Origin: a virus
Lineage: Duplodnaviria; Heunggongvirae; Uroviricota; Caudoviricetes
Reading direction: 5' to 3' (one strand)
DNA: 16,130 nt
IMG/VR virus record: IMGVR_UViG_2740892235_000003
The translations under genes and the position numbers were made by a program. Position 1 is the stretch's first letter. Each line of letters starts with the position of its first letter. Under the pieces are notes generated by a model, which ran no database searches, was not told where the DNA came from, and worked only from the letters and a program-made list of their open reading frames with translations. Below are positions 1,622-16,130 of the stretch, one piece after another.

Positions 1622-3913
1622 ATCAGGTGAACGAGAGCCATAGCCGCGCATCCGATATCTGGCGCGAAGTGGCCTCGCTGTTTCGCCCACCTGGCCGGTT
1701 ACCAGTAGCGGAAGCCATCAGGCGTTATATGCGGGTACCACGGGGAGCCAATACTTCCGGTCCGTGGGAGTCATCGCTGACGCCCTATATGATTGACCCC
1801 ATTAATACATTATCAGCCCGTGAATATGACGCGGTGGTGTTTGTGGGACCTGCGCGAACCGGGAAAACCGAAGGGCTGATTGATGGCTGGATTGTGTACG
1901 GCATCATCTGTGATCCGGCGGATATGCTGGTGGTGCAGATGACTGAGACGAAGGCGCGTGAGCATTCCAGAACGCGTCTTTCCAGGACGTTTCGCCACAG
2001 TCCGGAGGTCAGCAAGCGCCTCAGTCCTTCCCGTAATGACAACAACGTCCACGATAAAATGTTTCTTGACGGCTCCTTCCTGAAGATTGGCTGGCCGTCG
2101 ATCACTGTATTTTCCTCTTCGGATTACCGTCGTGTGGCGCTGACGGATTATGACCGTTTCCCTGAAAACGTGGACGGGGAAGGGGATGCCTTCACGCTGG
2201 CCTCAAAGCGTACCACCACCTTTATGTCCTCGGGGATGACCCTGGTCGAGAGTTCACCGGGGCGGGATATCACTGACACCAAATGGCGTTGTGGTGGCGC
2301 ACATGAGGCACCGCCAACAACGGGGATCCTGTCACTGTATAACCGGGGAGACCGCCGCCGGTGGTACTGGCCGTGTCCGCACTGCGGGGAATATTTTCAG
2401 CCGGTGATGGATAACATGACCGGTTACCGGAATAACCCTGATTTTGTGGCTGCCGGGCAGGCGGCCCGCCTGATGTGTCCGCACTGCCGCGGCCTGATTG
2501 CTCCGGAACAGAAGCGTGAACTGAATAACCAGGGGATCTGGCTGCGGGAAGGCGAACGGGCAGCGGCGGATGGCAGTATCACCGGAACCCCCCGAAATTC
2601 CAGAATAGCAAGTTTTTGGATGGAGGGGCCGGCTGCGGCGTTTCAGACCTGGGAACAACTGATTTTTAAGCTGCTGGCGGCAGAAGAAGAGTATGAGCGA
2701 ACCGGCAGTGAAGAGACCCTGAAAGCGGTGGTGAACACCGATATCGGGCGGCCCTATCTGCCCCGTTCAGCCACGGAACAGCGTAAAAGTGAACTGCTTG
2801 AACAGCGTGCCGAGCCGTTTCCCCGGCGATCNNNNNNNNNNACTGCTGGCGGCAGAAGAAGAGTATGAGCGAACCGGCAGTGAAGAGACCCTGAAAGCGG
2901 TGGTGAACACCGATATCGGACGACCCTATCTGCCCCGTTCAGCCACGGAACAGCGTAAAAGTGAACTGCTTGAACAGCGTGCCGAGCCGTTTCCCCGGCG
3001 ATCTGTGCCGGATGGTGTGCGTTTTATTGAGGCAACGGTTGACGTACAGGGCGGTAAAAATCGCCGTTTTGTTGTGCAGATCACCGGATACGGAGAGCAG
3101 GGGGAACGCTGGATTGTTGATCGCTACAACATCCGGCATTCACTGCGATGCAGTCCCAACGGTGAAAGTCTGCCGGTTGATCCGGCGGCATATCCGGAGG
3201 ACTGGGATTTGTTGCTGACGGATGTGTTCCATAAAACATGGCCGCTGGCTTCTGATCCGGATGTGCGCATGCGTCTGATGGCCATGGCGGTGGATACGGG
3301 AGGGGAAGCCGGGGTGACAGATAACGCCTATCGTTTCTGGCGTCGTTGCCGGAGTGACGGACTGGGCAACAGGGTGTTTCTGTTCAAGGGGGATGGTCTT
3401 CGCCGTGACAGGCTGATTAACCGTACCTTCCCGGATAATACCGGCAGAAGTGCCCGCCGTGCCAGAGCCAGTGGCGATGTCGCGCTGTGGCTGGTTCAGA
3501 CGGATGCGTTTAAGGACCGTGTAAATAATGCCCTGTGGCGTGACACACCAGGGCCGAACTATATCCACTTTCCCGACTGGCTGGGGCGGTGGTTTTACGA
3601 TGAGCTGACCTATGAAGAGCGCGGCAGTGACGGAAAATGGCGAAAACCGGGCAGGGGCGCTAACGAGGCGTTTGACCTGCTGGTTTATGCGGATGCGCTT
3701 GCCGTTCTGCATGGTTACGAAAAGATCCGCTGGCCCTCCGCACCGGACTGGGCACAGCGGGAAACGTGGCTCGTCTTCCCGCAGGAGCGTTCTGGTGAAA
3801 CGGTATCCCCGGAACTGACGGCCGGGGCAGAAAAACGCCGTCGCCGGAAGAAAAAACTGCGTACGGAGCGTGCGGAAGATAATCCATGGATAACATCAGG
3901 AGGCTGGTTGTGA
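1618..3913 (+). CDS. A: Terminase large subunit (gpA family); reading frame broken by a scaffold join (N run 2832-2841 with 161-bp unmerged overlap 2671-2831 / 2843-3003)
   Basis: GTG start at 1618 overlaps the Nu1 stop. Translation contains SLFRPPG, a Walker-A-like GPARTGKT, and CPHCGEYF / CPHCRG cysteine motifs, as in lambda gpA. The two track ORFs (1618..2868, 2789..3913) are one gene split by the 172-bp insertion artefact (161-bp duplicate, 10 N and 1 extra base), which shifts the frame. Confidence 0.85.
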
Positions 3914-4122
3914 GCACAGAAGAAGCCAGAGAAATGATACAGCGGTACCGTGAAGCGGAAATGGCCGTACTGGAGGGGAAGTCTGTCACCTTCAACGGGC
4001 AGCAACTGACGCTGGAAAGCCTTTCCCAGATCCGCGCCGGACGTCAGGAGTGGGAACGCAGGCTTGCCGCGATGGTGAGCCGCAGGCGGGGAAAACCAGG
4101 ATTTAAACTGGCGAGGTTTTAA
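3910..4122 (+). CDS. W: Head-tail joining / DNA stabilisation protein (lambda gpW-like)
   Basis: About 70 aa ending RRRGKPGFKLARF, compared with lambda gpW ending RRRGPAGFYV. Strong RBS AGGAGG (3898-3903) 6 nt before an in-frame GTG at 3910 that overlaps the terminase stop. The track ORF starts at ATG 3886, which lacks an RBS. Confidence 0.75.
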   Translation: MSTEEAREMIQRYREAEMAVLEGKSVTFNGQQLTLESLSQIRAGRQEWERRLAAMVSRRRGKPGFKLARF

Positions 4123-5793
4123 TGGCAATTATTGATGATGTGATAGGCGTGTTTTCCCCCGGGTGGAAAGCAGCCAGACTGCGTTCAAGGGCGTTAATCA
4201 TGGCCTATGAGGCGGTGAAACCGACCCGGACACATAAAGCCCGGCGGGAAAATCGCTCTGCCGATCAGCTCAGTAAATACGGTGCGGTTTCCCTGCGGGA
4301 GCAGGCCCGTTTTCTTGATATCAATCATGACCTGGTGATTGGTGTGTTTGACAAGCTGGAAGAGCGGGTGATTGGTGCCAGGGGAATTATTGTGGAGCCT
4401 CAGCCATTACGAAAAAACGGGGAAATGGCGGCAGAGCTGGCTGCGGATATCAGCCGGTTGTGGGCTGAATGGTCCGTGAGTCCGGATGTGACAGGGCAGT
4501 ATACCCGTCCCGTGCTTGAACGTTTACTGCTGCGGACCTGGCTGCGGGATGGTGAAGTGTTTGCGCAGATGGTCAGTGGTGCGGGAAACGGNNNNNNNNN
4601 NTGAGCTGGCTGCGGATATCCGCCGTTTGTGGGCTGAATGGTCCGTGAGTCCGGATGTGACAGGGCAGTATACCCGTCCTGTGCTTGAACGTTTACTGCT
4701 GCGGACCTGGCTGCGGGATGGTGAAGTGTTTGCGCAGATGGTCAGTGGTGCGGGAAACGGTCTGGAACGGACGGCGGGAGTGCCATTCTGGCTTGAGGCG
4801 ATGGAGCCGGATTTTGTTCCCATGCGCACTGATGAATCCGCCGGACTGAATCAGGGGGTTTTTCTTGATGAGTGGGGAAGACCGAAAAAATATCTGGTTT
4901 ATAAAAATTATCCGGTCAGCGGCCGGCAGAGTGATACGAAAGAAATCGCTGCCGGAAAAATGATCCACCTGAAGTTCACTCGTCGTCTGCACCAGACGCG
5001 AGGCTCATCCATGTTATCGGGGGTGCTGATGCGGATCAGTGCCCTTAAGGAGTATGAGGATGCGGAACTGACAGCGGCGCGTATTGCTGCGGCGCTGGGA
5101 CTGTATATCCGTAAAGGGGACGGGCAGGACTATGAAGATCCGGGGATCAAAGAAACCGAGCGGGAAGTCCATATCACCCCGGGTATTATTTATGACGATT
5201 TGCGCAAGGGCGAGGATATCGGCATGGTCAAATCTGACCGTCCCAATCCCAACCTTGAAACTTTCCGCAACGGCCAGTTGCGTGCTGTGGCCGCTGGTAG
5301 TCGTCTGAGTTTTTCCAGTGCGGCGCGTAACTATAACGGTACCTACAGCGCCCAGCGGCAGGAGTTGGTCGAGTCCACCGACGGGTATCTGATCCTGCAG
5401 GACTGTTTTATTGGCGCGGTAACCCGCCCTGTGTACCGGACATGGCTGAATATGGTGGTTGCGGCAGGTCTGCTGAAAATTCCGGCGGATGTGGAGATGA
5501 AAACGCTATATAACGCGACGTATTCCGGTCCGGTGATGCCGTGGATCGACCCGGTTAAGGAAGCTGAAGCCTGGAGAATTCAGATCCGGGGTGGTGCAGC
5601 GACAGAATCTGACTGGGTGCGTGCCGGCGGGCGCAATCCGGATGAGGTCAAACGTCGCCGCAAGGCTGAAATTGATGAAAACAGCAGACTGGGGCTGGTC
5701 TTTGATACTGACCCAGTCAACGACAAAGGAGGCAACAGTGCCGGAACTGAACGACAGTATCAGCGCGACACCGAAAGCCAGCATGAAGAATAA
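4122..5793 (+). CDS. B: Portal protein (gpB-like); frame interrupted by a scaffold join (N run 4592-4601 with unmerged overlap 4434-4591 / 4603-4760)
   Basis: ATG at 4122 overlaps the W stop (TAATG). About 500 aa once the duplicated block is removed. Position immediately after terminase and W and before the protease/capsid gene. The track ORFs 4122..4604 and 4516..5793 are the two halves. Confidence 0.8.
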
Positions 5794-15295: not shown

Positions 15296-15525
15296 ATGAC
15301 ACAGACTGAATCAGCGATTCTGGCGCATGCCCGGCGGTGTGTGCCAGCGGAGTCGTGCGGCTTCGTGATAAGCACCCCGGAGGGGGAGCGGTACCAGCCC
15401 TGCGTGAATATCTCCGCAGAGCCGGAGGCGTATTTTCGTATTGCACCGGAAGACTGGCTGCAGGCACAGATGCAGGGGGAGATTGTGGCGCTGGTCCACA
15501 GTCATCCCGGTGGTCTGCCCTGGCT
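15296..15525 (+). CDS. K: Minor tail protein K, N-terminal 76 aa only (truncated at scaffold join 15526-15535)
   Basis: MTQTESAILAHARRCVPAESCGFVISTPEGERYQPCVNISAEPEAYFRIAPEDWLQAQMQGEIVALVHSHPGGLPW is near-identical to the lambda gpK N-terminus. True start is ATG 15296 within track ORF 15035..15547. The sequence after the N run is not K but gpL. Confidence 0.85.
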
Positions 15526-15535
15526 NNNNNNNNNN

Positions 15536-16130
15536 GAGTGGCTTTGAGATGAACGGAAAGGGCAGCAGTGCCCGCCCGTCGCTGACGGTGTCCAATCTTT
15601 TCGGCCTTGTCACCGGGATGGCGGAGGATTTGCAGAGCCTGGTGGGGGCCACGGTGGTCCGCCGCCGGGTGTATGCGCGTTTTCTGGATGCGGTGAACTT
15701 TGTGGCAGGCAATCCTGAGGCAGACCCGGAGCAGGAGCTGACGGACCGGTGGGTGGTGGAGCAGATGTCAGCGCTGACGGCCATGACGGCCTCGTTTGTG
15801 CTNNNNNNNNNNTTTTGTGGCGGGGAATCCGGAGGCCGACCCGGAGCAGGAGCTGACGGACCGGTGGGTGGTGGAGCAGATGTCAGCGCTGACGGCCATG
15901 ACGGCCTCGTTTGTGCTGGCGACACCGACGGAGACGGACGGTGCGCTGTTTCCCGGTCGCATCATGCTGGCGAACACCTGTATGTGGGATTACCGGGGCG
16001 ATGAATGCGGGTATAACGGTCCGGCAGTGGCGGATGAGTTCGACAACCCCACCACGGATATCCGGAAGGACAGATGCAGTAAATGCATGCGCGGGTGTGA
16101 GATGCGCGGCATGGTGGCTAATTTCGGCGG
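15536..16130 (+). repeat. Redundant variant copies of gpL segments (15536-15802 resembles the L middle; 15813-16130 resembles the L C-terminal third), separated by N runs; assembly artefact, not additional genes
   Basis: Direct comparison: 15536-15802 repeats the gpL middle segment seen around 14530-15050, and 15813-16130 repeats about 14937-15255, with scattered substitutions. Each block is bounded by exactly 10 N. Confidence 0.75.

Follow-up and report, generated by a model that had tools for sequence, protein, structure and literature searches.

Seven 10-N joins in a lambdoid Escherichia coli late-operon record: almost certainly unmerged assembly bubbles from several slightly different prophage copies

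The stretch of DNA analysed here, called the window throughout (16,130 nt, IMG/VR record IMGVR_UViG_2740892235_000003), covers, as judged from its genes, the late functions (lysis, head and tail) of a lambdoid Escherichia coli prophage, of a type common in Shiga toxin-producing and enterohaemorrhagic E. coli (STEC/EHEC). It is cut by runs of N, beside which stretches of sequence occur twice. The gene order, taken from annotated relatives, starts with a lysis protein (Rz), a DUF1441 small-terminase-like protein, a GpA-type large terminase (TerL), a 70-aa W-like protein and the portal, continues with a fusion of a ClpP-like protease and the major capsid protein, a DUF2190 decoration-like protein, a Gifsy-2-type protein, Z, U, V, G and T, and finishes with the H tape measure protein, M, L and K. 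These head and tail genes are collinear with an EHEC-type lambdoid late operon: the annotation of comparison loci L001–L005 agrees with the Pfam families on loci L006–L013 (GpA_ATPase, Phage_portal_2, and CLP_protease with Phage_capsid_4 for the head; Minor_tail_Z, Phage_tail_U, Phage_TAC_2, Phage_tail_T, TMP_2, Phage_min_tail and Phage_tail_L for the tail). Phage 1720a-02, several Stx2a-converting phages and VT1-Sakai are 95–97% identical to the window, and prophages in complete E. coli chromosomes reach 99.3%. The closest complete reference, L001, is a prophage of strain JNE151685.

An exact-protein look-up with the tape measure protein led to a locus in CCQJ01000063.1 identical to window positions 1270–16130, and the window as a whole is the entire public whole-genome shotgun (WGS) record CCQJ01000063.1 (assembly GCA_000753315.1), Ns included. 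Since the window is a complete WGS record, both of its ends are scaffold ends and the Ns belong to the deposited sequence. A literature search for the accession and the assembly found no paper. The first base of the window mismatches both collinear references. On the right, at 16130, the window stops at a branch point of the graph, 80 nt past a site that differs from contig 6.

A preliminary description of this DNA, made from the letters alone, had listed seven runs of exactly 10 N; all seven are present, and a scan of the whole 16,130 nt finds no other N. They cut the window into eight segments, contigs 1 to 8, as follows (arm 1a and the like are labels for the repeated blocks).

1–2831, + strand: contig 1, with Rz, the cos region, the DUF1441 small-terminase-like gene and the N-terminal part of TerL; 2670–2831 is arm 1a
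2832–2841: 10-N spacer in the large terminase gene
2842–4591, + strand: contig 2, with the rest of TerL, the W-like gene and the N-terminus of the portal; 2842–3003 is arm 1b and 4433–4591 arm 2a
4592–4601: 10-N spacer in the portal gene
4602–5973, + strand: contig 3, with the C-terminus of the portal and the start of the ClpP-like protease/major capsid fusion; 100% identical to L001
5974–5983: 10-N spacer in the protease-capsid fusion gene
5984–14131, + strand: contig 4, with the protease-capsid fusion, head decoration, head-tail joining, Z, U, V, G, T, H and the start of gpM; its head 5984–6127 is arm 3b and its tail 14025–14131 arm 4a
14132–14141: 10-N spacer in gpM
14142–14665, + strand: contig 5, which completes gpM and holds the N-terminal part of gpL (haplotype 1)
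14666–14675: 10-N spacer in gpL
14676–15525, + strand: contig 6, with a divergent third gpL haplotype and the start of gpK (C40 peptidase)
15526–15535: 10-N spacer, followed by a back-jump of ~750 nt into gpL
15536–15802, + strand: contig 7, a 267-nt alternate gpL piece, equivalent to 14775–15041 of contig 6 (96% copy); terminal 80-mers common with contigs 5 and 8
15803–15812: 10-N spacer between two alternate gpL pieces
15813–16130, + strand: contig 8, a 318-nt alternate gpL piece, equivalent to 14937–15254 of contig 6 (98% copy); 100% identical to L001 and L002

We find redundancy at all seven joins. Six overlaps lie between the end of one contig and the start of the next, with lengths of 105–231 nt and identities of 95–99%:

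gap 2832–2841: 2670–2831 against 2842–3003, 162 nt, 3 substitutions
gap 4592–4601: 4433–4591 against 4602–4760, 159 nt, 4 substitutions
gap 5974–5983: 5830–5973 against 5984–6127, 144 nt, 2 substitutions
gap 14132–14141: 14025–14131 against 14142–14248, 107 nt, 4 substitutions
gap 14666–14675: 14435–14665 against 14676–14906, 231 nt, 11 substitutions
contig 7 end and contig 8 start: 15698–15802 against 15813–15917, 105 nt, 5 differences

In addition, the start of contig 7 overlaps the tail of contig 5 by 132 nt, and contigs 7 and 8 lie inside the span of contig 6. The preliminary description had seen repeats at five of the joins (the first five lines above, 107–231 nt with 2–11 differences), all of which are there, as are the four strings that it quoted as examples (at 2746 and 2918, and at 14505 and 14746); it undercounted the redundant joins, and the last two contigs are contained alternates rather than sequential pieces. 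A scan of the window for direct repeats (30 nt or longer, copies no more than 1 kb apart) returned seven families only. All of them adjoin N runs, so chance is not an issue.

The length of the exact matches is the most telling property of the repeats. Exactly seven 80-mers are repeated in the window, one copy of each being the last 80 nt of a contig, and a whole-window k-mer count finds no 81-mer that occurs twice. The pairs of contigs that share an 80-mer are 1/2, 2/3, 3/4, 4/5, 5/7, 7/8 and 8/6. Thus 2752–2831, at the end of contig 1, recurs at 2924–3003; 5894–5973, at the end of contig 3, recurs at 6048–6127; 14586–14665, at the end of contig 5, recurs at 15588–15667 in contig 7 and not in the adjacent contig 6; and 16051–16130, where the end of contig 8 is also the end of the record, recurs in contig 6 at 15175–15254. 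All eight contig right ends lie 80 nt past a variant site, seven as compared with another contig in the window (contig 1 past 2751 and contig 4 past 14051, for example) and one, that of contig 6, past a site that differs from L001. Conversely, each of the seven contigs that follow a gap starts on a variant base (A against G for contig 2).

If the copies were biological and had diverged, the exact stretches common to them would be of any length. In a de Bruijn graph, each k-mer is in one node and connected nodes overlap by k − 1. Because the exact match here ends at exactly 80 nt, always at the end of a segment, the contigs are de Bruijn graph nodes at k = 81; absence of any shared k-mer, end overlaps of k − 1 and boundaries at variant sites are all found. 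From this node structure it follows that the repeated blocks are the two arms of bubbles; an arm starts with the first variant and extends 80 nt beyond the last one. Derived from the variant positions, the arm lengths in k-mers are 162, 159, 144, 107, 132, 105 and 579, every one above 100.

Comparison with finished relatives places the contigs on a single unduplicated locus. On L001, contigs 1 to 8 start at 1001, 3629, 5219, 6448, 14488, 14782, 14880 and 15042; they are thus sorted by start coordinate, each overlapping the previous one, with contigs 7 and 8 within contig 6. The same genes occupy 14,630 nt in L001 and 16,130 nt in the window, and the duplications are missing from all 12 related loci compared, which come from complete or draft genomes. 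A path resembling L001 can be traced through the tail of contig 1, the body of contig 2, contig 3, the body of contig 4, contig 5, the head of contig 7 and contig 8; from contig 2 onward, and with the exception of the arms, it is 99.6–100% identical to L001.

Collapsing the overlaps leaves 14,672 nt, collinear with complete E. coli prophages, and single open reading frames (ORFs) result whichever copy is kept. The five restored proteins are 98.7–100% identical to the reference prophage proteins, as follows for L001.

TerL: 707 aa, 707/707 identical
portal: 500 aa, 499–500/500 identical
protease-capsid fusion: 659 aa, 658–659/659 identical
gpM: 109 aa, 108–109/109 identical
gpL: 232 aa, 229–231/232 identical

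The preliminary description had proposed such a collapse and expected intact ORFs of lambda-like length. Intact they are, with head genes that match the EHEC-type head module in length rather than lambda's own A, B and E. After the collapse no biological difference is left from the EHEC/STEC lambdoid prophages (1720a-02, VT1-Sakai and the Stx2a phages), which have the same gene order at 95–99% identity; what is peculiar to the record is its combination of alleles alone. Beneath the artefact lies an ordinary prophage, from a group that has been sampled very well.

The damage to the genes can be read from the insert lengths. TerL carries 172 nt (162 + 10), the portal 169, the protease-capsid fusion 154 and gpL 241, each a +1 frameshift; the insert in gpM is 117 nt, and therefore adds 39 codons in frame with no frameshift. 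False frameshifts or inflated ORFs had been noted for all five genes, which stands for the first four; gpM is only lengthened, and gpK, which had been passed over, is also hit, being truncated at 15525. Accordingly split are the public gene calls: TerL into 416 + 368 aa, the portal into 160 + 414 aa, the protease-capsid fusion into 88 + 653 aa and gpL into 113 + 202 aa, with gpM called at 148 aa in place of 109 and two extra fragments called from contigs 6 to 8. In the precomputed annotation of the record, Pfam hits are absent for most of the split pieces. The false content of the record amounts to 1,388 nt of duplication plus 70 N.

We conclude that the N runs and repeats are almost certainly an artefact of short-read assembly, namely unmerged bubble arms from a prophage present in several slightly different copies, with no real duplication. 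The window would be a scaffold from a de Bruijn assembly at k = 81, from a sample with two to three copies of a lambdoid late operon. Where the copies are identical, the graph would collapse them into one node; where differences cluster, it would form a bubble with two arms, and bubbles with arms of more than about 100 k-mers would be left unmerged. Of the two arms, one would stay joined to the contig on the left and one to that on the right. A scaffolder that learns from read pairs that the two contigs are neighbours, at a negative or zero distance, would then set the arms end to end with a minimum spacer of 10 N. In gpL, with three alleles, two short alternate contigs would have been put after the longer contig that spans them. 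The result is four false frameshifts (TerL, portal, protease-capsid fusion and gpL), a gpM longer by 39 in-frame codons and a truncated gpK.

How many copies there were can be bounded from below. At least three haplotypes are visible in gpL, because three sequences coexist at the same positions (contigs 5, 6 and 7, then contigs 6, 7 and 8), and at least two in TerL, the portal, the protease-capsid fusion and gpM, which bears out the earlier suggestion of two or more phage variants. The window matches a median of 3 places per E. coli genome, and up to 21. The complete genome of STEC2017-197 has two prophages with the module, 97% identical to each other, with 22 identical stretches of at least 81 nt in common, the longest of 2,001 nt; such stretches are exactly the substrate that would tangle a graph at k = 81. 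In both STEC2017-197 and NCCP 13963, the best match to contig 6 is in a different prophage than the rest of the window. A search of the closest complete genomes for a co-resident prophage that carries the alternate arms, giving only the best place per record, found none. Since E. coli genomes hold several copies of the module, and STEC2017-197 two that are near-identical, polylysogeny is the likeliest source of the variant copies and, in our view, a probable one; we infer that the prophages were co-resident in one isolate.

The variants could instead have come from a mixed or contaminated sample, that is, from two strains or a heterogeneous phage population, which we consider unlikely though worth keeping in mind. 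Contig sequence alone cannot separate a mixture from polylysogeny, and contig bodies that are common over kilobases, with only short divergent patches, would fit two very close strains. However, the record belongs to an NCBI genome assembly, for which we presume that an isolate was sequenced; in related complete E. coli genomes several copies of the module are routine, as counted above; and three gpL alleles fit polylysogeny more easily than a mix of two strains. A further step, which we offer only tentatively, is that the isolate may carry at least three lambdoid prophages together, their late operons being identical over kilobases and different only in short patches, which would be a signature of ongoing gene conversion between prophages of one genome. 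If this were true, the scaffold would, as a by-product, map the limits of the patches; equally, though, the contig bodies could look identical because the assembler flattened isolated single-nucleotide differences.

As for the software, Velvet at k = 81 with its Pebble scaffolder is the likely assembler. Velvet, Tour Bus and Pebble (Zerbino & Birney 2008; Zerbino et al. 2009, PMC2793427) resemble what is seen here in that nodes have no k-mer in common and overlap by 80 nt (k − 1), and in the N buffers between path-less neighbours (PMC2793427): where Pebble finds no path between two neighbours, it sets between them a buffer of as many Ns as the distance that it estimates, and many such buffers are very short (PMC2793427). 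A Velvet parameter called max_branch_length exists in the literature. The window itself has a constant spacer, long arms and contigs that begin on variants. These would agree with a fixed small buffer minimum, with the survival of arms above 100 k-mers and with post-buffer nodes that lack their first k − 1 nt, as expected of Velvet. SPAdes was also considered as the assembler and rejected; it uses an odd K with vertex overlaps of K nt, which the common end of 80 nt does not fit.

The main alternative on the software side is that contigs were ordered against a reference phage or genome after assembly and glued by a script with a fixed 10-N linker, with no part played by the paired-end scaffolder of the assembler. 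This would be the same class of artefact, arising at another step. The contigs are indeed sorted strictly by reference start coordinate, with the contained contigs 7 and 8 after contig 6, and all spacers are equal in length. Nevertheless we think this improbable: stand-alone de Bruijn contigs normally keep their first k − 1 nt, whereas here seven of seven post-gap contigs start on the variant base, as though the assembler itself had removed this prefix, and a buffer of minimum length at a non-positive distance would explain the constant 10 N equally well (for N buffers in scaffolds, PMC2793427).

The differences between the copies are, on comparison with other prophages, real alleles. Over the five adjacent overlaps, 19 of the 24 differences fall at the third codon position and 19 of the 24 are synonymous (binomial p = 5e-6 against one third), the third-position synonymous changes including all five first-base differences of these overlaps. 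At most variant sites both alleles are present among five independent prophages. Four arms differ from L001, and for three of them other complete genomes hold a 100% match: arm 1b (2842–3003) in many complete E. coli genomes, arm 2a (4433–4591) in NZ_CP024289.1 of O178:H19 strain 2012C-4431, and arm 4a (14025–14131) in many genomes. The preliminary description's attribution of the substitutions to closely related variants is thus well founded.

Several points weigh against the artefact interpretation as we have set it out, or at least against parts of it. First, the fourth arm, 3b (5984–6127), has a best match of 99.3%, and two of its variants, T at 5984 and A at 6047 (a change of Ser to Arg in the protease-capsid fusion), are absent from 5,426 complete E. 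coli genomes; nor does contig 6 have a match above 98.8% among them. Arm 3b and contig 6 could be graph errors or chimeric paths, or they could be unsampled alleles. Second, a strict unitig graph should also break the right-hand contigs where the left arm re-joins. They are unbroken, so that an extra step of repeat resolution or arc removal must be assumed. Third, the assembler and the source of the variants are both read from the sequence alone. Velvet writes scaffold gaps shorter than 10 as 10 N, as would suit buffers that are all exactly 10 N; Tour Bus merges bubbles only up to a max_branch_length with a default of 100, against arms of 105–579 here; and a Velvet node sequence omits its first k − 1 nt, so that a post-buffer node would start at its k-th base, which after a fork is the variant. 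Velvet at k = 81 is something that we infer.

The unmatched variants of arm 3b and the lack of an exact match for contig 6 are also what would favour sequencing or assembly errors at low-coverage contig ends, with a single phage copy. This is very improbable given the strong excess of synonymous third-position differences, the recurrence of both alleles in independent prophages, the three non-reference arms that are matched perfectly over 107–162 nt and the presence of six of the seven first-base variants in other genomes. Genuine tandem duplications of 105–231 nt, with N runs masking short unsequenced stretches, have only the raw appearance of the sequence in their favour and can practically be dismissed, as they would disrupt five essential morphogenesis genes, are absent from all related loci examined, match exactly over no more than 80 nt in all seven cases and always at a contig end, and are incompatible with the backward jumps of contigs 7 and 8. 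The earlier proposal of unmerged contig ends in place of tandem duplication therefore holds, given the absence of any repeated 81-mer, the seven terminal 80-mers and the single copy in complete relatives.

Unmerged bubble arms of this kind have a described counterpart in false segmental duplications of diploid assemblies (Kelley & Salzberg 2010, PMC2864568), which were divided into duplicated overlapping contigs (DOC) and duplicated contained contigs (DCC). In both classes, two alleles of one locus become separate contigs that are placed adjacently and look like a recent duplication, adjacent placement in the scaffold resulting from the read-pair links that both alleles have to the same flanks (PMC2864568). 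Six joins here are of the DOC type, with end overlaps that run right up to the spacer on both sides, and contigs 7 and 8, inside the contig 6 span, are of the DCC type. As in false duplication generally, the extra copies are absent from finished sequences of the locus and their removal restores the genes. Unlike the diploid case, the alleles here are most likely those of paralogous prophage copies in a haploid bacterium rather than of diploid chromosomes, and the scale of ~100–300 nt is set by the k-mer size.

Since no genome really has the duplication, its biological interest is low; there is no new biology, and the value is practical, in that a public record can be marked as faulty. Records of this kind can give rise to spurious pseudogene calls and false protein clusters, and to repeats wrongly reported by genome scans. 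The pattern also provides an artefact screen that needs no reads: no k-mer is repeated, and every repeated (k − 1)-mer stands at a contig end beside an N run of fixed length. This screen could be used to filter similar findings automatically. The artefact still indicates a source with at least two to three closely related copies of the prophage module.

Some further observations concern the prophage itself. Contig 1 is overall ~97–98% identical to its relatives, and contigs 2–5 are 99.6–100% identical to L001. There is a mosaic break at 1016–1336, where the part near cos and the N-terminal half of the DUF1441 gene are collinear with L003 but have no megablast match in L001 or in L006–L013.

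Over the whole window the + strand holds 5219 G and 3801 C, a strong G excess in keeping with all genes lying on one strand. Opposite V, G, T and the first part of H runs an antisense ORF of 600 aa (9742–11544, minus strand). It is open in close relatives (605 aa), but L004, a more divergent prophage, has no open stretch there longer than 136 aa; because it is closed in L004, the ORF most likely results from the G-richness of the coding strand and is no gene.

A slippery heptamer, G GGA AAG, lies at 10825–10831, near the end of gpG (10418–10849), with gpT (10876–11280) in the −1 frame, a layout that by its sequence is the conserved lambda-type G/GT arrangement for programmed frameshifting. In L004 (NZ_CP075663.1), the second prophage of strain STEC2017-197, gpT is annotated at 12589–12891 as a pseudogene without its C-terminus, and this second prophage may therefore be tail-defective.

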